The translations under genes and the position numbers were made by a program. The notes beneath the pieces are model-generated. The model had not been told where the DNA came from and did not search any database. It saw nothing but the letters and a program-made list of their open reading frames with translations. A stretch of DNA of 64,000 nucleotides, from NCBI GenBank assembly GCA_041649315.1, contig JBAZNJ010000004.1:25060-89059 (forward strand). The letters run 5' to 3'. Source of the stretch: Patescibacteria group bacterium (GTDB lineage: Bacteria > Patescibacteriota > Patescibacteriia > Patescibacteriales > UBA12465). Shown in pieces: positions 2,554 to 45,916 of this stretch. Within the stretch, counting starts at the first letter, position 1; every line of letters starts with the position of its first letter.

Positions 2554-2556
2554 ATT

Positions 2557-3210: not shown

Positions 3211-3223
3211 GACAGAAATAATT

Positions 3224-3678: not shown

Positions 3679-3693
3679 TAATTTTAAATTTTC

Positions 3694-5454: not shown

Positions 5455-5471
5455 GAATTATTATCTAACTT

Positions 5472-6677: not shown

Positions 6678-6724
6678 GCAGTTTAGCTAATTTTTACTCT
6701 TGATAAGTTTTCCACTATAAACTA

Positions 6725-6753
6725 TTGCGCTTAAAAAGGGAAAATGTTATAAT
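6725..6753 (+). promoter_or_regulatory. Putative sigma70-type promoter with extended -10 for the pilin gene
   Basis: TTGCGC (6725-6730), a 17-nt spacer, then TGtTATAAT (6745-6753), about 30 nt upstream of the pilin ATG. Confidence 0.45.
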
Positions 6754-6785
6754 TTTAATATCAGATAATAATAAATAAAATATCT

Positions 6786-9102: not shown

Positions 9103-9261
9103 AATTTATTTTATAATTATTTAAAATATTAAGCCTTTAGGGTTTGACTAAATAACTCTTAAAATAATTCCTAAAATTATAAAAAAATGTTATAATTTCT
9201 TTAGAATAAAGCGGAAGTCAAACACTTGAAAAGGGTTTTGACGGCCGTTTTTAGGATAATC

Positions 9262-11442: not shown

Positions 11443-11952
11443 ATGGCTAACTTTAGAGAAAAATTTAAGTCCGGCTTTACTTTAGTAGAAATTGTCGTGG
11501 TCTTATTCGTTATTTCGCTCGGCCTGGTCGGAGTTTTGACTTTGATTATCCAGAGCATCCAAAGCCAGAGTTATAATAAGAATAATTTGGTTGCTTATCA
11601 GTTAGCGCAAGAGGGAATAGAATTAGTTCGGAAGACACGGGACTCTAATTGGAAGGAATCATTAGAATTTGACGTTAATTTGGCCCCGGGCGAATATTAT
11701 ATGGATTATCTTGACGCGGCGCCGAACGATGCTTCGGCTGATCCGGATAATCTAACGATTTTAAGACAGGACGCGAACGGTTTTTATTTTCATGGGCCGA
11801 GCGGCTCGGGCGATCATAGCGGCTTTTCCCGCCGTTTGATTATTGAAGACCTTGACGCTGATTCGCTTCGGGTTATTGCCCGGATAAGCTGGTATGACCA
11901 TGATCGTTTTTATGAATATGATTTAGAAACGGTTTTGTACGATTGGAAATAA
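11443..11952 (+). CDS. Minor pilin (prepilin-type N-terminal cleavage/methylation domain)
   Basis: 169 aa. The N-terminus ...KFKSG|FTLVEIVVVLFVISLGLVGV is canonical. Confidence 0.75.
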   Translation: MANFREKFKSGFTLVEIVVVLFVISLGLVGVLTLIIQSIQSQSYNKNNLVAYQLAQEGIELVRKTRDSNWKESLEFDVNLAPGEYYMDYLDAAPNDASADPDNLTILRQDANGFYFHGPSGSGDHSGFSRRLIIEDLDADSLRVIARISWYDHDRFYEYDLETVLYDWK

Positions 11953-11966: not shown

Positions 11967-12533
11967 ATGGCAGAGAAAAAAATAAAAGCAAATAAAAATG
12001 CGGCCGCCTTTACTTTAATGGAAGTTATTGTTTCCGTGGCTTTATTTTCTTTAATCATCCTTTCCGCCACGCAGATTTTCAAGCTTGTAATTGATAGCCA
12101 GCGGAGCGCTTTAGCCACGCAGAATGTTCAGGAAAGCTTGAAATATTTTTTAGAAGTAACGGGCAAAGAAATCCGGATGGCTAAAAAAAATGAGGGGTTT
12201 TGCGCCGGAATTCCGGCCGATGAGATATTTCTCGTATCCAGCAACGCGCTCGGAGACACTTTAAGTTTTAAAAATTATTATGATCAGTGCGTTTCTTATT
12301 CTTTAGCCGCGGATGGCGACAATTCCCGTTTCCAGATTACCCGCGATTCAATCACGGATTTTATTTCTCCGGCCAAGATTAAGATTGCGTCTTTGCGGTT
12401 TGTTCTTGACGAAGGCGAATTTACCCAGCCGACGATTACTTTAAATCTCCGCGCCTATGCTCTTGATTTGCGTCAATTTGAATCAGAAATGATTCTTCAA
12501 ACCAGTATTGCTTCGCGGTATTATAAGGAATAA
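11967..12533 (+). CDS. Minor pilin (PilW/GspJ-like)
   Basis: 188 aa. N-terminus ...KNAAA|FTLMEVIVSVALFSLIILS, with Glu5 present and Ala at -1. Confidence 0.65.
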   Translation: MAEKKIKANKNAAAFTLMEVIVSVALFSLIILSATQIFKLVIDSQRSALATQNVQESLKYFLEVTGKEIRMAKKNEGFCAGIPADEIFLVSSNALGDTLSFKNYYDQCVSYSLAADGDNSRFQITRDSITDFISPAKIKIASLRFVLDEGEFTQPTITLNLRAYALDLRQFESEMILQTSIASRYYKE

Positions 12534-12543: not shown

Positions 12544-12933
12544 ATGAAATATATAAACCGGAAGAATTTATTAGGTCATAAAAGCTGTTCCCGGCCAGGA
12601 AGCGCTTTGATTTTAACCATGTTTATTTTAGCCGGCATGCTCGTTATTGCCATGAGCGGTTCATATTTAGTTTTACTCGGGATAAAAGCCGGCGGCATCC
12701 AATCACAATCAATGCGCGCTTATTTTGCCGCCGAGGCCGGAATGGAGTATTTTCTTTGGGAATTAAGGCAGAACGGTTATGAACCGGACGTAGTTTCGGC
12801 GACGCCGATTATGAACGGATCTTTGCCGGCCGGCGGCGCTTATGAGATTTATTATACCGCCTATCCGCCGCTTACTTTCCGCTCAATTGGGGATTTTCAG
12901 AATGTTCGACGAAGCGTGGAAGTGAGGATGTAA
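12544..12933 (+). CDS. PilX-like minor pilus protein
   Basis: 129 aa. The N-terminal hydrophobic segment GSALILTMFILAGMLVIAMSGSYLVLLG resembles the PilX N-terminal domain. It is the last gene of the minor-pilin operon. Confidence 0.45.
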   Translation: MKYINRKNLLGHKSCSRPGSALILTMFILAGMLVIAMSGSYLVLLGIKAGGIQSQSMRAYFAAEAGMEYFLWELRQNGYEPDVVSATPIMNGSLPAGGAYEIYYTAYPPLTFRSIGDFQNVRRSVEVRM

Positions 12934-12950: not shown

Positions 12951-12979
12951 TTGGCAGGAAACCTAAAAAATGTTATAAT
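12951..12979 (+). promoter_or_regulatory. Putative promoter with extended -10 for the first tail-fibre-like gene
   Basis: TTGGCA (12951-12956), a 17-nt spacer, then TGtTATAAT (12971-12979). Confidence 0.45.
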
Positions 12980-13025: not shown

Positions 13026-15470
13026 ATGTCCTGGCTTCCCGGAAAAAAAGTAGGGATCAGTTTTTTCGTCTTGATGATAGTCGGAGTTTTTTTCTTATCC
13101 GCGAATTGGCCGGATGCTTTGGCTTATCATGAGACCACGACTTACGAAAAACTTTTTAACGATACTTTGACTTCTGATGAATGGAATGATTTATTTGATG
13201 ATTTTGTTAATACTTGGCAGCCGGTGAGTATGAGCGGGCCTTTAGGGATCGGGATGGCCGCGCCGTCTAACGGCCGGCTAGCAATTGACGGTCGGGTTGG
13301 CATCGGAACCGCGACGCCTGATTTCACGCTTGATGTGAATACCGCCGAATTAGTCAATTACACGATTTCCGCCGGGAATAAAAGAATCGGCAATGTTGCT
13401 ATGCCGGCCGAAGATGCCGATGTCGCGACCAAGGGATATTTAGACGCCTCCTTAGAGGGCGGCTCGGGCCAGACGGTCGGGTATTGGGCATTGGATGGGA
13501 ATAATTTATTCGCGTCTTCAACGGATTGGAATGTGGGGATTGGGACGACGACTCCGGCAAATAAGCTTACCATTCAAGGTTCCGGTTCTATTGGTGGCTT
13601 TGCCGGAACGACTGCCAATGCTTATTTAAGAATAACTGACGGAACTGGAAGTATTTTCGCCGACCCTAATGAATTTTATGTCTCCGGCGGGAATTTTTAT
13701 ATGGGGACTTTGAATAATTATGATGTCAAAATTGGAGCTAATGCGGCTGAAGTAATGACTATTAAGGCTGGCGGTAACGTCGGCATCGGCACAACCGCGC
13801 CGACAGCAAAGTTGGATGTTGTTGGTTCCGCGAGAATAGGGGTTTCTAACGATGTTCCTATTAAAACTCTAACGGTTGCTGGTAATTTTAATTTTGATTC
13901 GGTGGCTAATCCGACTAATGCTGAAGTTCAAGGCATGGTTTTGACTAATGGTGGCGCGGGGAGTATCCAGGCAGGGACTTATTATTATGCGGTCGCTTAT
14001 GTGACTTCAGAGGGCGAAACTGGAGCCACGGGCCTTACTTCTTCAGGTTTTCCTTCAATTACTTTAGCGACTGATTCTCGGGTTGATATTTCTAATATCC
14101 CCATTTCTTCCGACCCGAGAGTGACTGGCCGGAAGATTTATCGCTCTCAAGCCGGGACGGTCGGGGATTATTACTATCTTTATTATATCGGAATTATAAA
14201 TAATAATACGACTACGACTTATACGGATAATAGCCCAAGAAGCACAACGGCGACTGATTGGATATATAATAAAAACAATACTACGGCGGGGATAATTTAT
14301 AGAGACGGAATTAGTATGGCGAAAATAGTTAATTATGTAACCGCTTTTGGTTCGAACGCTTTAGCTAATATTAATAGAGGTTCTACAGCCGCAGCTTTTG
14401 GTTCACAAGCTCTACAGTCTAATACGACCGGTAGTAGCAATCACGCCTTTGGACATGCTGCTTTAAGTACAGTGACTACTGGTTCTGGAAATGTTGGAAT
14501 GGGTTATGCCGCCGGGCAGGGCAATCAAATTGGGAGTTATAATGTTTCAATCGGAATGAATGCTGGAAGAAATAATACTTCTTCAAGTAATAATTATAAT
14601 ACAGGAATAGGGACAAGTGCTTTGTATGGTTTAACTACAAACAATATTTATAATACTGGCTTGGGAGCTTTTGCCGGCCAAAATTTCCAGGGTGCTTACA
14701 ATACTTTTTTAGGGGCGAATACCGGCTACCTTAGCGCGATAACTTCTATTGGTGATTATAATACTTTTATTGGTTATGATGTCGGTGATAATGCCACAAC
14801 CGGAGCGGATAATAATATTTTAATTGGGAATCAAATTGATTTGCCTGTTGCTGATGGAGATAATCAATTAAGCATCGGCAACCTTATTTTCGGCACGGGA
14901 TTAGATGGGACAGGAACGACGGTGAGTAGCGGGAATATCGGGATTGGAACGACGACGCCGGCGGTCCGTCTAGAAGTGGTTAATTCCGGGGCTAGTAATT
15001 ATACAATCATGGCCGGCGGCAAGCGCGTCGGTGATGTGGCTTTGCCGGTCGAAGATTATGATGTCGTAACTAAGGGCTATGTTGATGCGACTTTTGTTCC
15101 GGCCGGGACATCGACAATCGCGACTTTCGTCGGCGTGACCGCCAGCACCTATAACGGGAATAACGGTGGAACGGACGGTTATGCCACGGCGCATGCTATC
15201 TGCGCTCTTGAATACGCTGATTCGCATGTTTGCGCTACTTTTGAATTATTAAATTTTATGGAAAATGGCGGAACGCCACCGGCGCAAGACGCCTGGATTT
15301 TTAGCGGGCCGCCGGGATATACGGCCTTAGCGAATGATTGCGACGCCCGGACCGATAATACTTCCGCGGCTTATGGCACTTATTGGCAGAAGCCGGCGAC
15401 CGGCTATCCGGAAGGGCGCGGTTTATTGATGCAATGTAATAATTCAATTCGTTTCGCTTGTTGCCAGTAG
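13026..15470 (+). CDS. Giant surface protein A (814 aa), phage-tail-fibre-like with adhesin-head-like repeats and a Cys-containing C-terminal tip domain
   Basis: N-terminal TM/signal (ISFFVLMIVGVFFLSANWPDALA). Multiple (G)NVGIGTTxP motifs, each followed by ...KLxVxG. P-x-x-x-D-(V/A)-(A/V)-TKGY(L/V)D motifs of the kind seen in tail fibres. A run of about 14-aa repeats (AFGSNALANIN.., AFGSQALQSNTTG.., AFGHAALSTVTTG..) lies at 14341-14760. The C-terminus ends TYNGNNGG...SHVC...GPPGYTALANDC...FACCQ. Confidence 0.7.
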   Translation: MSWLPGKKVGISFFVLMIVGVFFLSANWPDALAYHETTTYEKLFNDTLTSDEWNDLFDDFVNTWQPVSMSGPLGIGMAAPSNGRLAIDGRVGIGTATPDFTLDVNTAELVNYTISAGNKRIGNVAMPAEDADVATKGYLDASLEGGSGQTVGYWALDGNNLFASSTDWNVGIGTTTPANKLTIQGSGSIGGFAGTTANAYLRITDGTGSIFADPNEFYVSGGNFYMGTLNNYDVKIGANAAEVMTIKAGGNVGIGTTAPTAKLDVVGSARIGVSNDVPIKTLTVAGNFNFDSVANPTNAEVQGMVLTNGGAGSIQAGTYYYAVAYVTSEGETGATGLTSSGFPSITLATDSRVDISNIPISSDPRVTGRKIYRSQAGTVGDYYYLYYIGIINNNTTTTYTDNSPRSTTATDWIYNKNNTTAGIIYRDGISMAKIVNYVTAFGSNALANINRGSTAAAFGSQALQSNTTGSSNHAFGHAALSTVTTGSGNVGMGYAAGQGNQIGSYNVSIGMNAGRNNTSSSNNYNTGIGTSALYGLTTNNIYNTGLGAFAGQNFQGAYNTFLGANTGYLSAITSIGDYNTFIGYDVGDNATTGADNNILIGNQIDLPVADGDNQLSIGNLIFGTGLDGTGTTVSSGNIGIGTTTPAVRLEVVNSGASNYTIMAGGKRVGDVALPVEDYDVVTKGYVDATFVPAGTSTIATFVGVTASTYNGNNGGTDGYATAHAICALEYADSHVCATFELLNFMENGGTPPAQDAWIFSGPPGYTALANDCDARTDNTSAAYGTYWQKPATGYPEGRGLLMQCNNSIRFACCQ

Positions 15471-15522
15471 TTTTTATTTTAATAATCATTAAATAAATCC
15501 ATCAAGCCCATATTTCGATCTT

Positions 15523-16860
15523 ATGTATATTGAATCAGAAAAACTGGAACTGAAAAGTACGCTTAATGAATGGCGGGAAATTATTATTTCTTTGTCGGCT
15601 TTTGCTAATAAAAATGGCGGGAAAGTAATTGTTGGTCTTGATGAAAAGGGTGAGCCGGTCGGTCTTGAAATCGGGAAGAATACGCTTGAAGATCTTGCTA
15701 ATAAGATTAAAACGCATACCGACCCGGTATTATATCCCTCAATTAACACATTGACTTTCGGCCCGGGAGAAATAATCGAGATTGAAGTTCCGGCCTCGGA
15801 CAATAAGCCGGTTTTTGCTTTTGATCGGGCTTATTTGCGCGTCGGCCGGACGAATCAGAAAATTAATAATAGCCAGTTAAGGGAACTGATCAAACGTTAT
15901 ACTTTACCGGATTTTGACCGTCGTCCGTTCGAGGGAGGAACGATTAAAACGATTGATTGGGACGAGAAATTGATGGCGGAGGCCGCAGAAAATTATGGTT
16001 TTAAATTCAAGACGCCGGGAGAATTTTTAAAAAAGATAAAAGCCGCTTCCGGCGCGCGACCGACTAATGCCGCTTATCTCTGTTTTGCTAAAAACACCGA
16101 TTCAATGTTTAACGCCTTAATTAGAGCGGCGCGATTCCAGGGGGATAGCACGGTAAAGTTTTTAGACATGAAAGATTTTGATAATAATTTAATTAGCGCG
16201 GTTAATGAAGTTATCAAGTTTATTAAACTCAATACGAGAAACGAAATAGTTATCAGCGGTCAGGCGCGCCATAAGGAGATCTGGGATTATCCGCTGGAGG
16301 CCTTAAGAGAAGCGATTATTAACGCGCTGGCACATCGGGATTATAATGATCCCGGCCAGGTTCAAATTCGGATTTTTGATAATCGTTTAGCGATTTGGAG
16401 TCCGGGCCTGTTGCCGAAAGAAATAAATATTAAGAATTTAGGCCAGGAAAGACGGTCAATCCCGCGTAATAAATTATTGGTGGAAATATTTCATAAATTA
16501 AAAATAATGGAAGTTTGGGGTAGTGGGTTCCGAAAAATTATTGATTTAACGCTCAAGAACGGCAATCCGGCGCCTGAGTTTTCGGAAATCACCGGCGCTT
16601 TCGTAATTACTTTCCGTAAAAGGGAAAAGATTGGGGGAGTAAATGGGGGAGTAAATGGGGGAGTAAATGGGGGTGTAAATGGGGGAGTAAAGTTAGTTGT
16701 TGATTTTGTCAGTCAGTATCCAGGATCAAGAACTGGAGCGATCGCTAAAGCTTTAAACAGATCGGATCGAACCGTGGAAAAATGGTTGGAGAAGCTAAAA
16801 AAGACAGACAAGATTGAATACCGCGGTAGTAGTAAAAGTGGCGGCTATTATTTAAAATAA
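15523..16860 (+). CDS. AlbA_2 (divergent AAA / Schlafen-type) + HATPase_c_4 + C-terminal wHTH putative regulator (COG2865-like)
   Basis: 445 aa. N-terminal ESEKLELKSTLNEW...AFANKNGGKVIVGLDEKGEPVGLE is the AlbA_2 signature. The central REAIINALAHRDY...IRIFDNRLAIWSPG matches the RecG-C-terminal-like HATPase_c_4 region. A (GGVN)5 linker follows, then a short wHTH-like tail. Confidence 0.75.
   Translation: MYIESEKLELKSTLNEWREIIISLSAFANKNGGKVIVGLDEKGEPVGLEIGKNTLEDLANKIKTHTDPVLYPSINTLTFGPGEIIEIEVPASDNKPVFAFDRAYLRVGRTNQKINNSQLRELIKRYTLPDFDRRPFEGGTIKTIDWDEKLMAEAAENYGFKFKTPGEFLKKIKAASGARPTNAAYLCFAKNTDSMFNALIRAARFQGDSTVKFLDMKDFDNNLISAVNEVIKFIKLNTRNEIVISGQARHKEIWDYPLEALREAIINALAHRDYNDPGQVQIRIFDNRLAIWSPGLLPKEINIKNLGQERRSIPRNKLLVEIFHKLKIMEVWGSGFRKIIDLTLKNGNPAPEFSEITGAFVITFRKREKIGGVNGGVNGGVNGGVNGGVKLVVDFVSQYPGSRTGAIAKALNRSDRTVEKWLEKLKKTDKIEYRGSSKSGGYYLK
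16633..16692 (+). repeat. 12-nt tandem repeat x5 (gggggagtaaat) encoding (GGVN)n in the AlbA_2 gene linker
   Basis: Five head-to-tail units at 16633-16692. Units 4 and 5 each carry one substitution. Confidence 0.9.
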
Positions 16861-16911: not shown

Positions 16912-19900
16912 ATGAGGGAGAAAAAGCTGTTTCTAACTTTAATCACGATAATCATCGGCCTGGCGGCCGCGGTTTCGGCGCGGGCCGGCGTTTGTCCGAC
17001 CGCCAGCCCACAGGGCGTTGGTTGCGCCAGTGAACCGAGCCAGCTTTATTATTGTGCTAGCGCCTGTCGGAGTATGGATATCGCTTATTGTCCGGAAAAT
17101 TCTTTGACCCCGGTATCTCCTTGTTCCGGCCTGGACTCTTGCGGCGTCTGCAGTACTTGCGAAACAAATTATCTCTTATGTACGGCAAGCGCCTATCCGA
17201 CCCGGAGTTGTACTTATAATGATCCGGCTCTTCATTGCGCGACTTTGACTAATTCAAATTGCAACGCCGGTCAGTGTGCTATTTGCGTTACCGGATATAC
17301 TTTATGCGCGACTGATCATACTTGTATCGCGACGCAGTCCTGCGAGCTCTGGGAAACTTTTAATGCTTGTACTAACGCTTGCGAAGGCGCGGCCCCGACA
17401 TTGAAATTGAATTATAATTCAGTTAACGCCAGTAATTATATTATCCAAAGCTCAAGTCCGGTTCTTTCTATTCCGCCTTCGGGTTTGGTCGGAATCGGAA
17501 CGACGGAGCCTGGGTATTTATTTGATGTCAACGGACTTGGTAATTTTGATGATTTTGTCCGCGGTGTTACGCCGCTTGATACTGACGATTATGCTTTAGC
17601 GACCGTCGAATACGTTAATTCCTTTTCCGGCGGCGGCCTCTGGGGCGGGGAAGCGGCCGGAAATATTTGGAATTTGAATAGCGGGAACATCGGGATTGGA
17701 ACGACTGCACCGGAAGGAATATTACATTTAACCGAGGCACCTGGGGCAGCATCTTCTGTCATGTATAATGATGTCTATACGACTTTTGCCTCAGGTTCTC
17801 CGGTTTATATGTATAGAAAATCAAACAGTAATACTTTAGGGGTAAAAACAGCAACAAATAATGGAAATAGATTAGGCCTTTTTGGTTGGCAGGGCGTAGA
17901 TAGTGGTTCTAATTTTGATTATGGAGCGGCGATTACTGTATATCAGGATGGTACAGCAGGTACACGCGTTCCTGCTCGGTTGGAGCTTTATACATTTAGT
18001 GATTCAGCATCTAATAGTCCGCAATTGGTATTAGCCCCGAATGGCAACGTCGGAATCGGGACGACCGCGCCGGGGGCAAAATTGGATATTCGTGGTGTGA
18101 ATGCCAACTTTTGGAATATTAGTGGGACCGCTAATGGTAATTACGCGAATGCAGTATTTGGTGAAGGTGTGAGCGCCGGCCAATATGCTGAGTTTATAAG
18201 ATATAGTAACGCATCCCCGGTTGGTGTTTTTCCGGGGGATTTTATTGTGGCAAATCTTAATAAGAAGATTATATTTTCGACCGCGTATTCAGGTGGGTAT
18301 AGAGGAGATTTAGTAGTAAATAGTACCGGCAACGTCGGAATCGGAACAACCGCGCCGGGATATTTGCTCGACGTCAACGGTCTTGGTAATTTTGAAAACT
18401 GGGCTTATGGACTTACCCCTTTAGATACCGATGACTACGCCTTAACAACCGTCGAATACGTCAATGCGGTTGTCGACGCGTCCAGTGGCGGTTTTTGGGA
18501 CGGAGAACTGACCAGTAATATTTGGAGCTTGAATAGCGGGAATGTGGGCATCGGGACGACGGACCCGGGACAAAAGCTGGATTTAGTCGGCAGTATAAAT
18601 TTAGAAAACACGACTTCGGCCACGACCGGTATAATTTATAAAAATAGCACGATTTTCCTCCATAATTTCCAGCATCCGACCGGCGGTGGCGCCGTGCCGA
18701 CAGGTCGCAACACTTTCCTAGGGGTCGAAGCCGGCAACCTGACTATGGGTTCGACCGCGACTAACGCCAACCATGCCTCTTTCAATACTGGAATCGGTTA
18801 TGGCTCAATGCTGGCCAATACCATCGGTCAGCGTAATTCAGCCCTGGGTTATTATTCTCTCTACCAAAATACTTCCGGTAATTATAATTCCGCCTTCGGT
18901 TATACTTCTTTATATTCTAATTCCACCGGAAGCCATAATGCGGCCTTCGGTTATAGCTCTTTAACTTCGACGACCGGCAGTTATAACTCCGGCTTCGGTT
19001 CGCAGGCTTTGACGGCGAATATCAGTGGGACTTATAACTCCGCTTTCGGCTATAATGCCTTAGCATCCAATTCTACCGGTGCTTATAATTCTGCTTTTGG
19101 CGCCAGTGCTCTAAATAATACTACTGGCGGATATAACTCCGCTGTTGGTTATAGTGCCATGAACGCTAATAATGCCGGTCAGCGTAATTCAGTGTTAGGA
19201 TATGCAGCTTTGTCCGGCAACACTACTGGTAATTATAATATCGCTTTAGGTCATGCCGCCGGTTCTTATATCGCCAATGGCTCGACCGGCAACACGACTT
19301 CTGATTATTCCGTTTATCTTGGTTCTAATACTAAGGCTCTAATTGACAATGGACAGAATGAGATAGTTATTGGTTATGATGCTACCGGCATCGGATCAAA
19401 TTCAGTTGTTTTAGGAAACGATAGCATTGTCCGAACCGCACTTAAAGGTTCGGTCGGTATCGGAACGACGGAACCGGGGTCATTACTCGACGTCAACGGG
19501 CTTGGTAATTTTGAAGATTTTGTTACTGGCGTAACGCCAAACGATACCTCGGATTATCATTTAACGACTGTCGAATATGTTAACGCAGTTGTTGGTTTAG
19601 CTGGCGGCGGACTTTGGAGCGGAGAATTGGCCGGTAATATTTGGAGTTTGAACAGCGGGAATGTTGGGATAGGGACGACGAACCCGGTCGGGAAACTTGA
19701 TGTCAATGGTAGCTTGATTTTCTCGGGTTCTACCCCGACGATAAGGTCGGATACCGCCGATGGTAGTGATAATAAACGGCTCGGCCTTTCCGGTGGCGGC
19801 GGCATAACTATTAATCAAGGCGCTTATCTGTTGGCCCATGGCAACGAATACGCGACTGACGCCGGTGCTTTATGGCTTGTTTCCGGAGATGTTTCCGGGA

Positions 19901-20724
19901 GCTATATAGATTTAAGACCAAAAGGAAATACGGGAATAAGGGTTAATGAAAGCGGTCTTGTCGGTATCGGGACAACTGCGCCGAATGTTAATCTTGATAT
20001 AGCCCCGGCCGCTTCTGATGCCTCTTTAAGAATCCACGCTCGAACCAGCACGACGCCGGTCGCTTCCTTGGAATTAGTTAGGGGCCCGAGCGTGACGACT
20101 TTCGGGAGCGGCGCTTATGGCCAATATCGGTTCAGGAATGATTCAGCCACGTTATTTGTCGATTACGGAATCAATGACGCGATTTCTCAAAGATTAACTA
20201 TCAACTCCTCCGGCAACGTCGGCATCGGAACGACGGATCCGGGATCATTGCTCGACGTCAACGGCCTTGGAAATTTTGAAGATTTTGTTACTGGTATAAC
20301 TCCTGATGACACCTCTGATTATCATTTAACGACTGTTGAATATGTTAACGACGCTATTGCCGCAAGCGGCGGTGGAATGGCGAGTTTTTCCGCCTCGACG
20401 GGAACGACCTACAACGGTTCTCAGGGCGGCTACACTTCAGCTAATGCGCTTTGTAATACCGCTGATCCTGGCAGCCATGTTTGTACGTCCGAAGAAATGT
20501 TGTATACAATCAATAGTGGTTCGGGTTCTAGTATTCCGGCTAATACGACTTTTTGGATCTCTAACGGACCGCCGGCTTATACGGCTAATGCTAATGATTG
20601 CCAGGGCTGGACGAGTTCGGCTTCTGGCGATTATGGAACGGTCTGGATTAAGCTGGCGAGCGGTGACGGCTTTGGCGCTTTGAATAAATGTAATTTAACC
20701 TATAAATTTGCCTGTTGTAAGTAA
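16912..20724 (+). CDS. Giant surface protein B (1270 aa), tail-fibre-like with a Cys-rich N-terminal domain, four copies of an ~80-aa module, adhesin-head-like repeats and the same C-terminal tip domain as protein A
   Basis: Signal peptide (LTLITIIIGLAAAVSARA). An N-terminal region of about 130 aa with more than 20 Cys. The module GIGTTxPGxLxDVNGLGNFxDFVxGxTPxDTxDYxLxTVEYVN...GNIWxLNSGNVGIGTT recurs near nt 17481, 18325, 19448 and 20213. Repeats of the form NSAFGYxALxSNxTG span 18780-19330. The C-terminus is TYNGSQGG...SHVC...GPPAYTANANDC...FACCK. Confidence 0.7.
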   Translation: MREKKLFLTLITIIIGLAAAVSARAGVCPTASPQGVGCASEPSQLYYCASACRSMDIAYCPENSLTPVSPCSGLDSCGVCSTCETNYLLCTASAYPTRSCTYNDPALHCATLTNSNCNAGQCAICVTGYTLCATDHTCIATQSCELWETFNACTNACEGAAPTLKLNYNSVNASNYIIQSSSPVLSIPPSGLVGIGTTEPGYLFDVNGLGNFDDFVRGVTPLDTDDYALATVEYVNSFSGGGLWGGEAAGNIWNLNSGNIGIGTTAPEGILHLTEAPGAASSVMYNDVYTTFASGSPVYMYRKSNSNTLGVKTATNNGNRLGLFGWQGVDSGSNFDYGAAITVYQDGTAGTRVPARLELYTFSDSASNSPQLVLAPNGNVGIGTTAPGAKLDIRGVNANFWNISGTANGNYANAVFGEGVSAGQYAEFIRYSNASPVGVFPGDFIVANLNKKIIFSTAYSGGYRGDLVVNSTGNVGIGTTAPGYLLDVNGLGNFENWAYGLTPLDTDDYALTTVEYVNAVVDASSGGFWDGELTSNIWSLNSGNVGIGTTDPGQKLDLVGSINLENTTSATTGIIYKNSTIFLHNFQHPTGGGAVPTGRNTFLGVEAGNLTMGSTATNANHASFNTGIGYGSMLANTIGQRNSALGYYSLYQNTSGNYNSAFGYTSLYSNSTGSHNAAFGYSSLTSTTGSYNSGFGSQALTANISGTYNSAFGYNALASNSTGAYNSAFGASALNNTTGGYNSAVGYSAMNANNAGQRNSVLGYAALSGNTTGNYNIALGHAAGSYIANGSTGNTTSDYSVYLGSNTKALIDNGQNEIVIGYDATGIGSNSVVLGNDSIVRTALKGSVGIGTTEPGSLLDVNGLGNFEDFVTGVTPNDTSDYHLTTVEYVNAVVGLAGGGLWSGELAGNIWSLNSGNVGIGTTNPVGKLDVNGSLIFSGSTPTIRSDTADGSDNKRLGLSGGGGITINQGAYLLAHGNEYATDAGALWLVSGDVSGSYIDLRPKGNTGIRVNESGLVGIGTTAPNVNLDIAPAASDASLRIHARTSTTPVASLELVRGPSVTTFGSGAYGQYRFRNDSATLFVDYGINDAISQRLTINSSGNVGIGTTDPGSLLDVNGLGNFEDFVTGITPDDTSDYHLTTVEYVNDAIAASGGGMASFSASTGTTYNGSQGGYTSANALCNTADPGSHVCTSEEMLYTINSGSGSSIPANTTFWISNGPPAYTANANDCQGWTSSASGDYGTVWIKLASGDGFGALNKCNLTYKFACCK

Positions 20725-20745: not shown

Positions 20746-23025
20746 ATGAAACGAAAATTATTATTCTTTATCTCCATATTTTTCACCTTAGTATTAGCTT
20801 TTTCCGCAGAAGCTGCTACTTCGCCACGCGGTTGCGAAACTGATACTATGAAAAGCGGAGTATTTTGTAATTGGGCGGAGTTGAAATCATGGTGTGATGG
20901 GAATACTCTTGTTTGCGCGGTAGAATCGACTGAGGATTGTCCGGCTAACCCAACAGGAGGCACATATACTTTTAGTTGTAATATTAATGATTGCATTCTT
21001 AGTTGTACCACGGGGTATACTAAATGTTCCGAAACCTGTAAATTAAATGTTTCTGTCCCGTCGAATTGTACTTCTTTTAATCAGTGTACGGAGGTTTGTT
21101 CGGCTTGCGCACAGGGTTATGAGCTTATTAGCGGTTCCTGTGTTGGAGCGACTTTAAAATTAAGTAGTAGCTCTGTCGGGGCTTCTAACTATATATTCCA
21201 AAGTTCAACCCCCTCTTTATCAATATTAGCTTCAGGCGATGTTGGTGTTGGAAAGATTGATCAAACATACAAACTTGACGTCAACGGCCTCGGTAATTTT
21301 AATGATTTTGTTACCGGTCTAACCCCGATGGACACACAGACCAACGCTTTTGCGACTGTTGATTATGTTAATACTTATGCCGGCGGAAGCGGTAGTGAAT
21401 TTTGGGATGGGGAGGTGACCGGGGATATCTGGAATTTAAATAGCGGGAATGTCGGGATTGGGACGAATAGTCCTTACTCTACATTACATTTAAATGTAGG
21501 GAGCGCGGGAGCCTTACAAATTTCAGCCGGAGCCGACAGTGGAGCATTTTTACAAAGTGGTGGGACGGCAGAATTCCATTTGATAGGCGGGGCAAAATAT
21601 ACTTCTTATTCTTCTCCAAATTTTATATATACCGCAAAATCAACTGCGTTTGGGGGTATTTATAGTGGAGGAGGAAATTTATATTTTTCAACTGGAACCG
21701 GCTTAACAGCTGGAAATACGTTTAATCAAAATGATTACAGAAGAATGATTATTAATTCTTCCGGCAACGTCGGGATTGGGACGATGGCGCCGGGAGCATT
21801 ATTAACGGTTAGTAGATCGGCCACACCAATTATTAGTTTAGAGGAAAGCGGACAAGCAGCTAATAATAAGATTTGGCAGGTTAGGCAGAATGGTGGATTA
21901 TTTCAGATAGTGGCCGGCAATGACGCCTACTCGGGTTCCCATAAAGGGATTGAAATTACGAGAAGTGCGACCGTCGGCTATGTCGGTAATATCAATTTTT
22001 ATACCTCTACCAGTCAACCAAGGATGACTATCTTGGAGACCGGCAACGTCGGGATAGCAACGACGGATCCGGGAACGCATCTTGAGGTTAGCCAGGGCAC
22101 TTATAGTTTGCCGGCTACTATCGGTAGTGTACAAACCGGCAGTTTGCGCTTAAGTGCTCGTACTAGCGGCAATGTCGTTCTTGACATGGGCGTTTCCAAT
22201 CCTCCGGTTGCTTCCTGGATTCAGTCAACCAATCGCGGGTCATTGGATGCCGCTTATCCTTTATTCCTTAATCCTAATGGCGGCAATGTCGGCATCGGCA
22301 CGACGACGCCGGGATCTAATAGGTTAAGTGTTAATGGCGTAGGAAATTTTGATGGTTTTGTTTATGGTGATACTCCGAACGATACTGATGACTATGCCTT
22401 AACGACTGTAGAGTATGTTAATGAGCTTTTTACTGGTGTTCCTGGCGGTACTCCTGATGCCGGCGGCTACTTGCCGCTTATCGGGGGAATGATGAAAGGT
22501 GATATTACTATGGAAGAATGGACTAGTGATGACCCCCCAGAATTTGTAGAAAAGCATAATATTACAGGAATTAACGAATTAGAGGCTGAAAAAATCACTG
22601 CCGCTACCATTGACCCTCTCTACACTCTTAACAAAACCAATTACGCGACTTTTGTTGCTTCTATTGTCGGCGGAGTGAAAGAAGAATATACCGGCAAGAT
22701 TAAGATTCGGAAAGCGGTTATGGCGCCTACGGGTCGGGAATATGAAGCAATAATTGATTTCGCGTCGGCCGAAGAAGGAAGCGAGCCCTGGGTTTGGTAC
22801 CAGGTTGTTGATTTTGCGCCGGATAATGTCGAGGCCTTTATTACCCCTTATGGCAAATTCGCCAATACTTATTATTTTATTGACGGCGAACGCTTGGTTT
22901 TCCGGGCCGATCGTCCGGTGGAAGTTTCTTATCGCTTGATTGGCAAGCGCTTTGACTGGCGCGACTGGCCGCTTAAGCCGTTTGATCAGAGCGGGAAGGG
23001 CCTTGAAGTTAAACTGATAAAATAA
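20746..23025 (+). CDS. Giant surface protein C (759 aa), tail-fibre-like; N-terminus homologous to protein B, with a different C-terminal domain
   Basis: Signal peptide (LLFFISIFFTLVLAFSAEA). The Cys-rich N-terminus and TLKLSSSSVGASNYIFQSS parallel TLKLNYNSVNASNYIIQSS in protein B. GNVGIGT motifs and the DVNGLGNFNDFVTGLTP module are present. The C-terminal ~200 aa (GGYLPLIGGMMKGDITM...) is unrelated to the A/B tip. Confidence 0.7.
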   Translation: MKRKLLFFISIFFTLVLAFSAEAATSPRGCETDTMKSGVFCNWAELKSWCDGNTLVCAVESTEDCPANPTGGTYTFSCNINDCILSCTTGYTKCSETCKLNVSVPSNCTSFNQCTEVCSACAQGYELISGSCVGATLKLSSSSVGASNYIFQSSTPSLSILASGDVGVGKIDQTYKLDVNGLGNFNDFVTGLTPMDTQTNAFATVDYVNTYAGGSGSEFWDGEVTGDIWNLNSGNVGIGTNSPYSTLHLNVGSAGALQISAGADSGAFLQSGGTAEFHLIGGAKYTSYSSPNFIYTAKSTAFGGIYSGGGNLYFSTGTGLTAGNTFNQNDYRRMIINSSGNVGIGTMAPGALLTVSRSATPIISLEESGQAANNKIWQVRQNGGLFQIVAGNDAYSGSHKGIEITRSATVGYVGNINFYTSTSQPRMTILETGNVGIATTDPGTHLEVSQGTYSLPATIGSVQTGSLRLSARTSGNVVLDMGVSNPPVASWIQSTNRGSLDAAYPLFLNPNGGNVGIGTTTPGSNRLSVNGVGNFDGFVYGDTPNDTDDYALTTVEYVNELFTGVPGGTPDAGGYLPLIGGMMKGDITMEEWTSDDPPEFVEKHNITGINELEAEKITAATIDPLYTLNKTNYATFVASIVGGVKEEYTGKIKIRKAVMAPTGREYEAIIDFASAEEGSEPWVWYQVVDFAPDNVEAFITPYGKFANTYYFIDGERLVFRADRPVEVSYRLIGKRFDWRDWPLKPFDQSGKGLEVKLIK

Positions 23026-23120: not shown

Positions 23121-23177
23121 ACTAATATAATAACCTTGGCGCGCTTTTTCATTCTCAAAGCCGCCGACCATAAAAAT

Positions 23178-23852
23178 ATGGAAAACAAATCAAAAAAAAT
23201 CTTAATTATCGCTGTTTTAGTAATCGCTTTGGCGGCCGTGATTACTTTAGCCTTCCTCCAAGGCCGAAAAAGTTCAGAGACGACTGTGCCAACCGTAAGC
23301 CGTCCGGCGGCGGTTCAGACCGGTGTTGACGGCGTTGCTTTAACTGAAGACGGGGACTATGCGCCGACTGAGGCTAATGCTTGGAATGAAAATGAGGCCT
23401 TGGCTGAAGCAGTGGTCGTCGTGCCCGGGGCTAATCCGATCGCGAAAGACAATACCGTCTTGACCGCGGCCGGAGAAGTCGCCCGCAATGACGCTATGCC
23501 GTCCGCGCCGGATGCGCCGCGCCAGACCCAATCGCTTGATGCGGAAAAATTGCCGGCGGAAGTAATCAGATTAGAAATCAGCGCCGCAACCGGTTATGTT
23601 CCGAATGAATTCACGGTCAAAGCCGGTGCGCCGATAACGATTTCCCTTACCAACAATGAGCCCGAGAAAGGTTCGCATGGTTTCGTCTTTCTGGATCAGG
23701 AAAATTTGTCCGCTATTGCCATGTCGGTCCGGCCGGGCGAAACCCGCGCGATTACTTTTAACGCTCCGACCGAGCCGGGTGAATACGGTTTTCGTTGCGG
23801 CATCCCGGGGCATAGCACGCGCGGAGAGGTTGGTACGATGATTGTAGAATAG
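23178..23852 (+). CDS. Membrane-anchored cupredoxin-domain protein (putative type-1 copper site)
   Basis: The track start at 23136 is TTG. The ATG at 23178 (MENKSKKILIIAVLVIALAAVITLAF) matches the paralog's start context. The C-terminal domain is FTVKAGAPITISLTNNEPEKGSHGFVF...GEYGFRCGIPGHSTRGEVGTMIVE, with a His...Cys-x4-His...Met ligand pattern. Confidence 0.65.
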   Translation: MENKSKKILIIAVLVIALAAVITLAFLQGRKSSETTVPTVSRPAAVQTGVDGVALTEDGDYAPTEANAWNENEALAEAVVVVPGANPIAKDNTVLTAAGEVARNDAMPSAPDAPRQTQSLDAEKLPAEVIRLEISAATGYVPNEFTVKAGAPITISLTNNEPEKGSHGFVFLDQENLSAIAMSVRPGETRAITFNAPTEPGEYGFRCGIPGHSTRGEVGTMIVE

Positions 23853-23999: not shown

Positions 24000-24668
24000 A
24001 TGGAGAATAAAACAAAAAAAACATTAGTTATGCTCGGTGTGCTGGTTGTTTTGGCAATAATCATTATCGCGATTGCTGCTCAGAACAAAAAAGCGGTTGA
24101 ACCGACGCCGGAGGAATTAGGCCTGAAGCCCTATAACGACCAGACCGCGGTTGAAGCGCCGGGCGGACCGGAAGGCACGCCGATTGACGAGGGGGATTTA
24201 GCCGAGCCGATGGTTAACGAAGTTTTGAAAGACGCGGTCGTAGCCGCCCCGGGCGCTAACCCGATTACTACAGAAGATAAGGTCGTTACTTCGTTCGGCG
24301 AGGAAACCCGGAACGATGTTGAGATAGCTTCGCCTCTTGCTCCGGCCCAGACCGGCCCGATTTCTAAAGAAGACCTGGCGGCGACGGCAATTAATCTTGA
24401 AATCAGTGCGGCCGGCTATAGCCCGAATGAATTTAGGGTCAAGGCCGGTGCACCGGTAACGATTTCTCTTACCGGTATTGATTCCGCTCATACCATTGTC
24501 TTTGAAGACCCGTCGCTGTCGGCTATCGCCATTGGCGTTTATAAGAACGAGACCCGGGCGATTACTTTTAACGCGCCGGCCCAGAAAGGCGAATATGTTT
24601 TCTATTGCAATGTTGGCGGCGTGATTCATAAGAATCGCGGCGAAGTCGGAAAGATGATTGTGGAGTAA
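24000..24668 (+). CDS. Membrane-anchored cupredoxin-domain protein (paralog of 23178..23852)
   Basis: 222 aa with the same architecture. The C-terminal domain is FRVKAGAPVTISLTGIDSAHTIVF...GEYVFYCNVGGVIHKNRGEVGKMIVE. Confidence 0.65.
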   Translation: MENKTKKTLVMLGVLVVLAIIIIAIAAQNKKAVEPTPEELGLKPYNDQTAVEAPGGPEGTPIDEGDLAEPMVNEVLKDAVVAAPGANPITTEDKVVTSFGEETRNDVEIASPLAPAQTGPISKEDLAATAINLEISAAGYSPNEFRVKAGAPVTISLTGIDSAHTIVFEDPSLSAIAIGVYKNETRAITFNAPAQKGEYVFYCNVGGVIHKNRGEVGKMIVE

Positions 24669-24717: not shown

Positions 24718-24746
24718 AAAACGCCCTTAGGAAAAGGGCGTTTTGC
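24718..24746 (+). terminator. Rho-independent terminator after the cupredoxin pair
   Basis: Stem aacgccctt / aagggcgtt with loop agga, followed by a T run. Confidence 0.7.
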
Positions 24747-25062: not shown

Positions 25063-26310
25063 ATGATAAATAAAAATATTATTAAAGAAGTCGTGCTTGA
25101 GCAAAATTTTTTATTTAGGAAAAAGGGTGTTTATTTAAAGAGGGGCTTGGCGGAAAATAGTCTAAAAACAAAAAAGATATTTATTATAACCGGTATCAGG
25201 CGTTCCGGAAAATCAACCCTACTCAAACAAATCTCGCAAAACTATCAAGATTTTTATTATTTAAATTTTGAAGATGAGCGGCTTTTGAATTTTAAAAGCT
25301 CGGATTTTAATTATTTACTTGAAGTTTTTATTGAGCTTTACGGTGGACAAAAGGTTTTTTTGTTCGATGAAATTCAATATATTAAAGGCTGGGAAAAATT
25401 CGTCGGGCGGCTGTTTGCAAATGGTTATAAAATTTTTATTACCGGAAGCAGCGCGAATTTATTAAGTCGCGAGCTCGGAACGGCTTTAACCGGCCGTCAT
25501 TTAAAAATGGAATTATATCCTTTTAGCTTTAAAGAATATTTGGCTTATTTTAATTTAAGTAAATTTAATTTAAATTTAACGGAAGATAGGGCAAAACTTA
25601 AAAAATATTTTAAGGATTATTTAGAATATGGCGGTTTTCCGGAAATTTTAGAGAGCAAGGATAAAAACGAGCTGTCCCAATTATACCAAGACGTTTTAGT
25701 TAAAGATTTATTGGTTAGATTTAAAATAAAAGACGACAAGGCTTTTAGAGAATTAGTCTTATATTTAATGTCTAATATTGGAACGCCGGTAAGTTTTAAT
25801 AATTTAAAAAAAATTCTCGGCTTTAAAAGTGTGAGCCAGGTTAAAAATTATGTCGCTTATTTAGAAGAAGCTTATTTGGTCTTTTTGCTTTATAAATACG
25901 ATTTTTCTTTAGGCAAGCAGATGATAAATGATCGGAAAGTTTATGGTATAGACGCGGGGATGATAAAAGCGGTTTCGTTTAGATTTTCTGAAAATAGCGG
26001 TCGTTATTTAGAAAATTTAGTTTTTTTGGAATTAAAAAGAAAAGAGAAGGAAATTTATTATCATAAAAGCGATTACGAATGTGATTTCATAGTCAGAAAA
26101 GGTTTAAAAATAGCCGAAGCAATCCAGGTAACGGAAAATTTAAATATAAATAATAACGAGCGGGAGATAAACGGATTAGTTTCGGCTTTGAAAAAATATA
26201 ATTTAAAAGAGGGCCTGATCTTAACGAGCGACTTAGAAGAGGATAGAAAGCTTGGTGATTTTAAAATAAAAATTAGGCCAATTTGGAAGTGGCTTTTAGC
26301 CCACGATTAG
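25063..26310 (+). CDS. AAA+ ATPase with DUF4143 domain (COG1373-like)
   Basis: 415 aa. Walker A GIRRSGKST, Walker B VFLFDEIQY, then ITGSSANLL...GR. The C-terminal region is DUF4143-like and ends in a PD-(D/E)xK-like CDFIV. The gene is visibly more AT-rich than its neighbours. Confidence 0.75.
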   Translation: MINKNIIKEVVLEQNFLFRKKGVYLKRGLAENSLKTKKIFIITGIRRSGKSTLLKQISQNYQDFYYLNFEDERLLNFKSSDFNYLLEVFIELYGGQKVFLFDEIQYIKGWEKFVGRLFANGYKIFITGSSANLLSRELGTALTGRHLKMELYPFSFKEYLAYFNLSKFNLNLTEDRAKLKKYFKDYLEYGGFPEILESKDKNELSQLYQDVLVKDLLVRFKIKDDKAFRELVLYLMSNIGTPVSFNNLKKILGFKSVSQVKNYVAYLEEAYLVFLLYKYDFSLGKQMINDRKVYGIDAGMIKAVSFRFSENSGRYLENLVFLELKRKEKEIYYHKSDYECDFIVRKGLKIAEAIQVTENLNINNNEREINGLVSALKKYNLKEGLILTSDLEEDRKLGDFKIKIRPIWKWLLAHD

Positions 26311-26313: not shown

Positions 26314-28251
26314 ATGCCTCAAAAAAAATTGACTCATCCCATAACTACATCCAAAACTAGCCCCAAGGCTAAATTAATGGCGCGAAAAACCAATCGTCAG
26401 GATAATATTTTATTGGCGGTTTCCTCGGTCGTAATGCTGGCGCTTGTTTATTTGGCGGCTCTTAATATTTTTTCTTGGCAAGCTTCTTTAGCTCCGGGCG
26501 AAGATCGGAGTTTTTTTGCTATTTTTAAAGATTCGGATTCGGGTTCGCCTTTAGCCGGAACGCCGGAAAATGAACAATCATCGGATATTTCAAAATTATC
26601 TTCGGAGGAAGTTAATAATTTTAATATTAATCATTTTAATCAAAATTCGGACGCAGGAGGCAATTCTAATTCCGGCTCAAAGCCGTCTTCGGGTTCGGAT
26701 GAGCCCGGGGGAGATGATTTAACAGGCGAGGGGGAGACAGAAATAGGCCAGGAAGGCGCGCAATCCGGAACCGGTGAAATCCAGACCGGAGCCGGAACCG
26801 GCACGTCGTCTGAATCAAGCCCAGCGTCCGGAGGTTCTTCCGGGTCAGGACAAATATTAGAGCCCGCGCAAGAATCAGAACCGGAGTCGATGCCAGAACC
26901 AACATCAGAACCTATTCAAGAGCCAAACCCAGAACCGGAGCCGATAATTGAGCCGATTTTAGAGCCAGAATCCGTTCCCGAACCTGCGGAATTCATTCCG
27001 GATTTTGTTCAGGAACCCGAGCCGGAGCCGGTTCAGGGACCCGAACCAGAGCCCGCCCCGACTCTGGTTTTCGGCAGTTTTTTTAATACCTTTTCTTCCG
27101 ATGCCGCCTTAAATTTAAGCCGAACCGACCTTTATCAGGATACGCGGGCAACCGCGATGATCTTTGAGCCGGATTATAGCTGGCAAGAAGCCGCGAGCGT
27201 TCCGGCCGGTGATTTTTCTTCGCCCGCGCCGAACAGTTTTACCGGCCCCTATCTTGACCGGCGCTGTTTGAACGCGAATTGTTTAGAACAACGATGGAAC
27301 GAGCTTTACTATAATAATGAAGCATTAGCCTATCCGTCTGAAGTGGACGCCTTTGTGGCCGGCGGCGGAGAAGTCGCGGCGGTTTCTTTTTTTACTTTAA
27401 GCGAGCGCTGGGTTGTCGGTTTTACTTTAAAGAAGGGAAGCGGCTATCAGGGTTTTGCCTATTATTTTGACGGACAATCTTTCACGCCGATTATTACCGC
27501 CTCAACTACGGCCAGGGTATCGTCGTCCTATTTCGGCCTTTTCGGCGGCGGCGGCACTGAGGACGATTTCTTGCTCATCTATGGCGCTTATAAAGGAATC
27601 GCTTATCGCGTTCGTGGGGGAAATTTAACTGACATTAGCAAATTTTTTGATATAAGAGCGATGATTGGCGGCTTTAAACCCGAAGCCATCCGCCTTGTCC
27701 GCGACGACAGCGCGCTTTGGTATGTTTATAGCTCGACTCTGTCCCGGCAGATTCTTATCAAGCTTTGGCAGAACGGCGGTTCCGAAATAGCGGGCGAAAC
27801 TATTTTCAGGAACGAATTAGCCGTTTTTGAATCAGTCATTTTTAAATTAAAAAGCTCCGGAACGAGCGAAGTAGTTTTGTCGGCCAAAGCTTCAAGCAGT
27901 GGTGTTGACGCCTGGTATTCATTTACTGATCGCGGTTTTAAGAATAATAGTTTAGCCGCACTTGAATTCGATCCGGTTTCCCGCAGTCGCGGCGATATTG
28001 AAATTGAAAAAATCTCCGCCAGTCGCTTAGCGCTTGACGCGCCGAGCTTGGCCTTGAGCGGGGAAGCGGGGATAAAATTTCTGTTTTCTTCCGACGGCGT
28101 TAATTGGCAGACGCTTCCTTTAGGCGCTGATATCACTTTCCCGACCGGAAAAATCGCCAGCTTTTTCCTCCGGGTCGTTTTCCCGTCTTTTATTGATAAA
28201 TTCTATTCGCCTTTCTTAGACAGCGTGACTTTTAATTATTATTATCATTAA
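26314..28251 (+). CDS. Large membrane-anchored protein with a P/E/S-rich low-complexity spacer and a C-terminal globular region (unknown function)
   Basis: 645 aa. TM helix [23 protein letters not shown] region of about 170 aa rich in (EP)n and SG, such as [24 protein letters not shown]. About 400 aa with no recognised motif follow. An alternative start is ATG 26377 (MARKTNRQ). Confidence 0.6.
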
Positions 28252-45915: not shown

Positions 45916-45916
45916 T

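Follow-up and report, generated by a model that had tools for sequence, protein, structure and literature searches.

Two tail-fibre-like proteins of a Patescibacterium share a conserved six-cysteine tip domain with a predicted C-type-lectin-like fold

We analyzed a stretch of 64,000 nucleotides (hereafter the window) from a Patescibacteria group bacterium (assembly GCA_041649315.1, contig JBAZNJ010000004.1, positions 25,060 to 89,059), in which two genes of the forward strand encode long tail-fibre-like proteins ending in the same cysteine-containing domain. Protein A (814 aa, open reading frame (ORF) 13026-15470, NCBI MFA5000454.1) consists of an N-terminal hydrophobic segment, a stalk resembling mosaic adhesive trimer (MAT) and tail fibres, and the C-terminal domain, which we call the tip. 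Protein B (1270 aa, ORF 16912-20724, NCBI MFA5000456.1) has a signal peptide, a Cys-rich N-terminal region, a stalk of the same kind and the tip. Both are recorded as "hypothetical protein". The A-type tip lies at 15111-15467 (aa ~696-814) and ends in RFACCQ, immediately before the stop codon at 15468-15470; the B-type tip lies at 20371-20721 (aa ~1154-1270) and ends in KFACCK, before the stop codon at 20722-20724.

The two tips, of about 117 aa, are 42.5% identical over 120 aa in tblastn (E 1e-23 to 6e-24). When the last 125 aa of A and of B were searched against the whole window, the sole match of each was the reciprocal copy (15117-15467 and 20377-20721), all other matches having E>2. Full-length BLASTP aligned residues 634-814 of A with 1099-1270 of B (40% identity over 184 aa, E 3e-28), and a hidden Markov model (HMM) of the domain, run on the six-frame ORFs of the window, found exactly two copies, whose envelopes are the tip coordinates given above. 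Because only 59 nt of the two tips match at the DNA level (75% identity), the likeness is protein-level paralogy and not a recent DNA repeat; a window-wide repeat search found no second DNA copy of either tip. A previous reading of this DNA, made from the letters alone (the sequence-only reading), had proposed that A and B share a Cys-containing C-terminal domain. These searches confirm it, and the coordinates and motif string it gave were essentially correct, the resemblance being far beyond chance.

The predicted structure of the tip places it in a known fold class. An AlphaFold2 (AF2) model made from an alignment of 16 sequences (pLDDT 87.9, pTM 0.84) and another made from 94 sequences (pLDDT 94.7, pTM 0.88) have the same order of elements: strand, helix, helix, strand, short helix, and three strands. 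With either model, the 50 best Foldseek matches in the PDB were all C-type-lectin-like domains (CTLDs). These included snake-venom lectins (snaclecs), with EMS16 as the best match (E 8.5e-4, probability 0.99), as well as Mincle, BDCA2, the fourth carbohydrate-recognition domain (CRD) of the mannose receptor, natural killer cell receptors, DC-SIGNR, and langerin. The highest TM-score was that of endostatin (0.59-0.60, probability 0.97-0.99). C-type lectins were also the only matches, albeit weak, in a library of viral structures. The models thus identify the tip as a divergent member of the CTLD fold, the fold class being clear, and the tentative impression of a C-type-lectin fold in the sequence-only reading is borne out.

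Family membership is another matter. The tip has no name in Pfam or NCBIfam, and the only Pfam family that recurs is DUF1554, found in 15 of the 94 tip members with a best E of 0.0013, always under the gathering cut-off of 27.5 bits. It matches the B tip at 11.1-11.6 bits (E 0.25-0.36) and gives no match for the A tip. Wherever the alignments were displayed, they covered the same segment of the model (94-129 of 136), and a Pfam scan of 10 divergent members of the tip family added one more weak match. At most, these scores would make the tip a distant relative of DUF1554. None of the 94 members matched the Pfam Endostatin family (PF06482), and hhalign of the 94-sequence profile against human endostatin, whose sequence was checked against 1BNL, was not significant (E 0.18); this non-significant alignment puts W62..C77..W80 of the tip on W..YCETW of endostatin. 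As far as the models tell, the likeness to endostatin is at the level of the fold only. The "DUF1554 / endostatin-like" label of the sequence-only reading therefore holds as fold and remote homology, and fails as family membership. Lectin_C had no match at E<=10 in any of the 94 members, and in the tip alignment the loop after the "WI" strand is short, with 15 residues up to the cysteine at position 77. Rather than a classical lectin CRD, the tip is a C-type-lectin-like domain of compact build. Sequence searches of the PDB with the tip and profile searches with the 16- and 94-sequence alignments gave nothing usable, 8z4h at E 6.7 being at chance level. Pfam scans of the tips showed no signature of the FGE-sulfatase or DUF1566 type. 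Neither A, B, nor any of the 94 tips matched Peptidase_S74 or another chaperone family, so that a known chaperone or autoproteolytic tail-spike domain, the alternative identity that had been raised for the segment, was not found, the predicted fold being that of a CTLD.

The tip is rich in positions that hardly vary. Position, cysteine and length counts were made on 159 retrieved sequences. In the numbering of the B tip, Y21, C28, H36, C38, E42, W62, G66, P67, P68, N75, D76, C77, W92, C107, C115, and C116 are invariant or nearly so, and 138 of the 159 tips have exactly six cysteines. C28 lies in helix 1, C115 and C116 in the last strand, C77 and C107 where CTLDs expect cysteines, and C38 is an extra one. 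We take C28 to be C1 of the CTLD motifs, C77 and C107 to be C2 and C3, and C115/116 to stand for C4; likewise, we assume that "GSHxCxxE" replaces the CTLD motif "HLasI.s.eE" and "WI" the motif "WIGL". C38 is presumably paired with the second terminal cysteine, and the positions seem compatible with the nested disulfides of endostatin (helix 1 to last strand, C2 to C3). The six invariant cysteines probably form three disulfides. Position 80 divides the subtypes: it is W in 110 sequences (B type) and R in 36 (A type). A DsbA-like thioredoxin-fold protein is encoded elsewhere in the window (43080-43823, +), and it is plausible that it helps the oxidative folding of the many Cys-rich exported proteins of the locus.

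A profile search of 1.84 billion cluster representatives (clusters at 50% identity) shows that the tip belongs to a large family, with 1,145 representatives at E<=1e-3 and 758 at E<=1e-10. The carriers range from 116 to 2722 aa. The tip ends at the very last residue in 146 of the 159 proteins and within 4 residues of the end in the others, and an N-terminal hydrophobic segment is present in 110 of the 140 members that begin with Met. In the records consulted, carriers that bear a name are called "hypothetical protein", and the majority are nameless. Judged by named sources and GTDB record titles, most members are found in Patescibacteria (Falkowbacteria, Parcubacteria, Peregrinibacteria, and Gracilibacteria); going by record titles, a few occur in metagenome-assembled genomes (MAGs) of Elusimicrobia, Vicinamibacterales, and Binatia, and two in MAGs of DPANN archaea. 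The latter are encoded at 1686-2471 of L016 (a Nanoarchaeia MAG) and at 9446-10297 of L026 (a Nanobdellota MAG), and reflect either transfer between ultrasmall episymbionts of two domains or mis-binning.

With the 16-sequence alignment, we gathered 32 related genomic loci. At 21 of them, 2-4 co-oriented genes lie in tandem, each ending in a tip. A second architecture consists of proteins of about 170 aa that have an N-terminal membrane anchor and the tip, and nothing else. In Peregrinibacteria and Gracilibacteria, the gene for such a protein usually precedes one of about 555-620 aa that also ends in a tip. This pair, with an anchor-plus-tip protein of ~176 aa, recurs in L021, L022, L024, L027, L028, L031, and L046, and in the last of these (Gracilibacteria) a PilM-like gene lies 6 kb upstream of it.

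The tips are the best-conserved part of A and B. In the loci L002, L001, L006, and L003, identities to the A tip are 78, 72, 54, and 54% for the tip of one gene, and identities to the B tip are 73, 76, 61, and 67% for that of the other gene, whereas the corresponding stalks differ in length and are 31-45% identical. Because orthologous tips are 54-78% identical against ~42% between A and B, the two tip types are old and separately maintained. Variation between strains was measured for the A tip alone, using one metagenome contig of 1,285 nt from a related strain (L045; JGI 3300037067, Ga0378408_0528682, 1-1285), which carries an A-type tip at 91.5% nucleotide identity. Over the 117 tip codons, synonymous divergence (dS) is 0.43 and non-synonymous divergence (dN) 0.038, giving a dN/dS of 0.09. 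All 7 amino-acid changes fall within the first ~35 residues, the last 85 aa being identical, and the 36 substitutions are chiefly transitions and not adenine-specific. For B, an exact contig look-up returned no variants of the same species, and a scan of metagenomes gave at most 58% identity. These values argue for strong purifying selection on the tip, not hypervariability, and the elevated polymorphism that had been suggested as a check on this segment is not seen.

This bears on diversity-generating retroelements (DGRs), which the sequence-only reading had brought up for these tips while noting that the window has neither a reverse transcriptase nor a template repeat. The latter observation stands. 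Among the larger ORFs of the window, scanned with Pfam, no reverse transcriptase (RVT) family was found, and a coarse screen, a regular-expression search for the motif IGxxxSQ...YxDD, gave no match in six-frame ORFs from the window or from any of the 32 related loci. The repeat search and tblastn showed no template repeat of the tip in the window beyond the paralogue itself (75% over 59 nt). In the 32 loci, no template-like repeat was found either, the extra matches being paralogous tips at 68-79% or the short WINNGPPGYTANANDC core. The Asn-rich ANAND stretch, otherwise a natural DGR substrate, is near-invariant across the family. The implication of a hypervariable tip did not survive: with no reverse transcriptase or template repeat found in the window and the 32 loci, no adenine-specific variation in the strain variant, and conserved tips, a DGR origin of the tip variation is rejected. 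A CTLD tip in a genome of the Candidate Phyla Radiation (CPR, the Patescibacteria) is not necessarily a DGR target, and few parts of this locus are as well conserved as the tip.

The stalks are built from repeats that the two proteins have in common. The stalk of B has nine motifs of the G[IV]G[TI] type (GNVGIGTT-like) and NSAFG repeats. Modules of the GNVGIGTTxP type, a junction module of about 50 aa (…LDVNGLGNFEDFVTG…TTVEYVN), and an NSAFG-type block are shared by A and B at 31-34% identity. The rest of the two proteins is thus not unrelated; the length gap, put at 450 aa in the sequence-only reading, is 456 aa. The junction module before the B tip (20191-20376, +; SSGNVGIGTTDPGSLLDVNGLGNFEDFVTG...TTVEYVN; repeat families D2, D4, and D5) is present 4 times in B and also in a third fibre, protein C; the one before the A tip, identified by BLASTP and repeat search, lies at 14930-15110 (+; SSGNIGIGTTTPAVRLEV...DVVTKGYVDA). 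Protein C (759 aa, 20746-23025, +) is a paralogous fibre with the same Cys-rich N-terminal region, stalk and junction modules, and another C-terminus of ~200 aa that is not a CTLD tip and has no family match; its homologues occur in 15 of the 32 related loci. Protein D (1455 aa, 29894-34261, +) also shares the stalk repeats, has no CTLD tip, and matches phrog_5911 ("tail protein") with its N-terminus (E 1.2e-26). The stalks of A, B, C, and D all match PHROG tail-fibre families, B matching phrog_9942 (tail fibre) at E 4.9e-27, and A has a faint match to the Phage_T7_tail N-domain at aa 662-690 (Pfam). The term "tail-fibre-like" was thus apt for the stalks; no PHROG match of A-D extends into the tip.

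The junction modules are candidate recombination points for the swapping of tips. In the related strain, L045 joins a stalk of B (98.2% nucleotide identity, window 17683-18358) to the junction and tip of A (91.5%, window 14997-15570) at a GNVGIGTT repeat, and 3' of its stop codon, 103 nt show 100% identity with the window. The joint reflects either real tip swapping between paralogues or an assembly chimera across the repeat.

The nearest described relatives of the stalks are the MAT fibres of Bdellovibrio bacteriovorus, trimeric beta-helical proteins whose capping loops bear the motif V-G-G/N-small-x-x-P-x-x-x-L (Caulton et al. 2024, PMC10769870). In phmmer, residues 256-407 and 359-396 of B match Bd2133 (PDB 8OND, E 8.6e-6), residues 169-270 of A match the beta-helix modules of 8OND (E 7e-4), and A matches Bd3182 (8OJN, E 5.5e-3). 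The alignments to Bd2133 pass through the SGNLGLGTAAP…LHV and GNVGIGATAPTAKLEV motifs, to which the GN(I/V)GIGTTAP..L motifs are aligned, so that A and B have the capping-loop motif in a form one residue longer than that of MAT fibres. They also have the variable C-terminal ends on related stalks that mark this class of protein, with a CTLD in A and B and other C-termini in C and D. Neither A nor B has the N_methyl motif of class III prepilins in Pfam, unlike the neighbouring genes, and their N-termini resemble Sec signal peptides or anchors.

These neighbouring genes encode parts of a type IV pilus. The machinery (716-7229, +) comprises PilM (716-1783, E 6e-41), the PilB/T2SSE ATPase (3694-5454, E 5e-128), PilC/T2SSF (5472-6677, E 8.5e-56), and a pilin (6786-7229, E 1e-9), all recognized with Pfam. 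Four pilin-like or minor-pilin genes follow on the same strand (10730-11413, 11443-11952, 11967-12533, and 12544-12933), with Pfam N_methyl matches and weak NCBIfam matches of the ComGE, ComGD, GspH, and GspK kind, and the block ends 93 nt before A. In the product of the first of them, a gene that is also kept ahead of the minor pilins in L002, L003, and L006, a prepilin-type motif "YTLIEM" appears only from residue ~47, which reflects either an unusually long leader or a mis-called start. A Cys-rich secreted protein of 499 aa without a family match is encoded just upstream (9226-10725, +), and is conserved 5' of the minor pilins in the same three loci. The region's best promoter-like site (12951-12979, +), a consensus match of 11/12 positions with an extended -10 TG, lies 47 nt 5' of the start codon of A. 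Downstream of C are two paralogous membrane-anchored cupredoxin-like proteins (23136-23852 and 24000-24668, +; Pfam Cupredoxin_1), the second followed by a terminator-like hairpin at 24718-24744 (consensus match only), and then orf26314 (26314-28251, +), an unannotated protein of 645 aa conserved downstream of the fibre genes.

The gene order is kept in the nearest relatives: minor pilins, tip-bearing fibres, a C-like fibre, the two cupredoxin-like membrane proteins, and a homologue of orf26314. Homologues of the cupredoxin-like proteins occur in 12 of the 32 related loci (cupredoxins and orf26314 in 11-12). Minor pilins precede fibre genes also in L002, L003, L006, and L008, and PilM lies near distant tip members in L020, L025, and the Gracilibacteria locus L046. 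One gene of the window departs from this order. Between A and B, at 15523-16860 (+), lies a Schlafen AlbA_2 / HATPase_c_4 / HTH gene with (GGVN)x5 near its C-terminal third. It has no homologue in the 32 related loci, and A-type and B-type genes are adjacent in L002; a defence-type gene seems to have been inserted recently into the fibre operon here. The fibre genes are flanked by pilus, YbeY, FemAB, cupredoxin, LigA, and GatA-like genes, the LigA being 70% identical to that of a Falkowbacteria genome; the window is cellular DNA, not phage DNA.

Given these data, we find it fairly probable that A and B are MAT-like surface fibres that use non-variable, distal CTLD tips to bind a conserved ligand carried by another cell. 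The fibres would leave the cell via Sec and, probably as trimers, would keep their N-terminal end at the cell or the pilus while the repeat-built stalk pushes the C-terminus outward. The tip, taken to be the working, outward-facing part because anchor-plus-tip mini-proteins of ~170 aa exist, would then bind a ligand at the surface of another cell, which is presumably the host of the episymbiotic Patescibacterium. Because there are two old, separately conserved tip types, A and B would probably bind two different ligands. The repertoire would diversify by gene duplication and by the exchange of modules at the repeated junction, rather than by mutagenic retrohoming. A wider proposal, which we put forward tentatively and regard as doubtful, is that such fibres are host-recognition organelles of episymbiotic Patescibacteria, and perhaps of some DPANN, in which a MAT-like system is coupled genetically and functionally to the type IV pilus, and two ancient Cys-knotted tip types each recognize a conserved component of the host envelope.

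The comparison with MAT fibres goes beyond the stalks. In both systems, long secreted beta-helix fibres with the capping-loop motif V-G-x-G-x-x-(x)-P-x-x-x-L carry interchangeable C-terminal tips, several paralogues are present per genome, and the producer lives on other bacteria. MAT tips include S74, TNF-like, and new beta-sandwich domains, as well as Bd2740's C-type-lectin fold, which is trimeric and Ca-free, is closest to snake-venom lectins, and trimerizes in a mode similar to that of the DGR protein Mtd (PMC10769870). Snake-venom lectins, nearest folds of the Bd2740 tip, are also among the top fold matches here. The MAT C-termini are exposed on the predator surface, deletion of bd2740 slows prey entry, and the authors raise a possible interplay with type IV pili (PMC10769870). 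The tips studied here differ from that of Bd2740 in belonging to another sequence family, endostatin/DUF1554-like and with six invariant cysteines. Further differences are that the bacterium with these genes is a monoderm-type Patescibacterium, that the N-terminal region of B and C is Cys-rich, and that the genes lie inside a minor-pilin operon. Trimerization of the fibres is presumed. Patescibacteria are absent from the published table of MAT proteins in other lineages, as are tips of the six-Cys kind (PMC10769870), and our literature search found no paper combining MAT fibres with Patescibacteria.

Other systems are similar in part. Endostatin (the NC1 of collagen XV/XVIII) has the best TM-score; the tip is shorter by about 65 residues and has a third pair of cysteines, and, unlike endostatin and DUF1554 (PF07588), which belong to collagen and Leptospira lipoproteins, it is found on bacterial fibres. 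DGR variable proteins, such as Mtd of Bordetella phage and TvpA of Treponema, are likewise fibre or surface proteins whose C-terminal, ligand-binding end is a CTLD, and Mtd, trimeric and Ca-free, is the sole CTLD trimerizing like Bd2740 (PMC10769870); they differ from A and B in the very elements, reverse transcriptase, template repeat and adenine-specific variation, that we did not find here, where the tip is under strong purifying selection. In the Saccharibacteria TM7x, the lectin-like minor pilins or pilus-tip proteins PilX1 and PilX2 contribute to host binding (PMC11623550). As with these and with PilY1 of Pseudomonas, genes for large putative adhesins come right after minor-pilin genes in our locus. 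Yet A and B, which lack both an N_methyl leader and a beta-propeller, are fibre proteins and not modular pilins, and their putative association with the pilus is suggested by gene order.

Several observations weigh against surface fibres with ligand-binding CTLD tips. The E-values of the Foldseek matches are modest (8.5e-4 at best), and most TM-scores are below 0.5. The tip has no sequence match to that of Bd2740 (8OKS), which is also outside the top 50 fold matches. The canonical Ca/sugar motifs EPN/QPD and WND are absent from the tip alignment, so that binding of carbohydrate cannot be assumed. The best-conserved stretch, WINNGPPGYTANANDCxGW, sits where CTLDs usually vary, and its conservation could point to a structural rather than a binding role. 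Finally, the linkage to the pilus is limited to the closest relatives and a few other loci, and in L047 the fibre genes lie between translation-factor genes.

Among other explanations, the polarity of the fibre could be reversed, with the tip anchoring the fibre to the cell wall, S-layer or pilus of the producer itself and the Cys-rich N-terminus doing the work at the distal end. The cleavable-looking signal peptides of B and C, which have no recognizable anchor, would fit, as would a tip that is the most conserved part of the protein, expected if it binds an invariant self structure, and that occupies the extreme C-terminus, as many sorting or anchoring domains do. We nevertheless think it unlikely: the ~170-aa members already have an N-terminal membrane anchor and are otherwise the tip alone, the C-terminus is distal and surface-exposed in homologous MAT fibres and in phage tail fibres (PMC10769870), and two distinct tip types are kept side by side across genomes. 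It is also rather improbable that the tip binds no ligand and is mainly a cap for folding or trimerization, serving the beta-helical stalk as a nucleus in the manner of an intramolecular chaperone. Such a role would be consistent with its position, which is that of S74 chaperone or capping domains in MAT fibres and tailspikes (PMC10769870), with its conservation relative to the stalk, and with a conserved core loop that does not vary. However, the fold is that of a CTLD and not of a chaperone, without any match to Peptidase_S74 or another chaperone family; the tip also occurs alone on a membrane anchor, where there is no stalk to fold; and the non-S74 tips of MAT fibres fold independently and serve as adhesins (PMC10769870).

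A phage origin is suggested by the stalks, which match PHROG families of tail fibres, tail spikes, and virion-structural proteins, by the faint match to the T7 tail-fibre N-domain, and by a cluster of recombinase, terminase-like, and methylase genes at 53-58 kb. Still, that A and B are tail fibres of a prophage or of a phage-derived particle is very improbable, since there are no capsid, portal, tape-measure, or baseplate genes nearby, the synteny with minor pilins and cupredoxins is kept across several Patescibacteria genomes, no PHROG family or phage tail-tip structure covers the tip, and the terminase-like gene is more than 30 kb off, beyond a defence island. We reject a prophage origin of the fibre genes on this gene context. 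The tip could also have been a receptor-binding domain of the Mtd or TvpA type, made hypervariable by a DGR or otherwise: a fibre-like protein of a CPR genome ends in a CTLD here, and CPR bacteria have their own clade of DGRs (clade 2) with targets that adopt C-type-lectin folds (Roux et al. 2021, PMC8144416). The searches and the strain comparison described above have already largely refuted this, and it now has next to no credibility.

The CTLD fold is already known, and so is the type of fibre (MAT or tail-fibre-like), of which one example has a tip with a lectin fold. What is new is a large family of six-Cys tips without a Pfam or NCBIfam name and its concentration in Patescibacteria, the strong conservation of the tip as two orthologous types, and its placement in a minor-pilin operon. 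How Patescibacteria find and hold their hosts is largely obscure outside a few cultured Saccharibacteria, and these proteins are concrete candidates for host attachment, with two distinct tip types. The fibres are thus a testable lead for attachment in ultrasmall bacteria, and no surprise in kind. If the host-recognition reading is true, the tip family would give a marker of host range that can be read from sequence, and a handle to pull down the hosts of uncultured ultrasmall bacteria.

The remainder of the window has a few other features. Two genes encode AAA_14/DUF4143 ATPases (25063-26310 and 35458-36861). From ~37800 to 52000 (+), a defence island of low GC content (~30%) includes an AbiEii toxin (38363-39076), HsdM/S/R of a type I restriction-modification system (44341-50649), and a Shedu SduA_C gene (50654-51946). 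The reverse strand carries, at 53133-57701, genes for a large serine recombinase, a terminase-like or helicase protein (Terminase_6C), and a DNA methylase of the N6/N4 type. They may represent an integrated mobile element or what is left of a prophage, and more than 30 kb separates them from the fibre genes.

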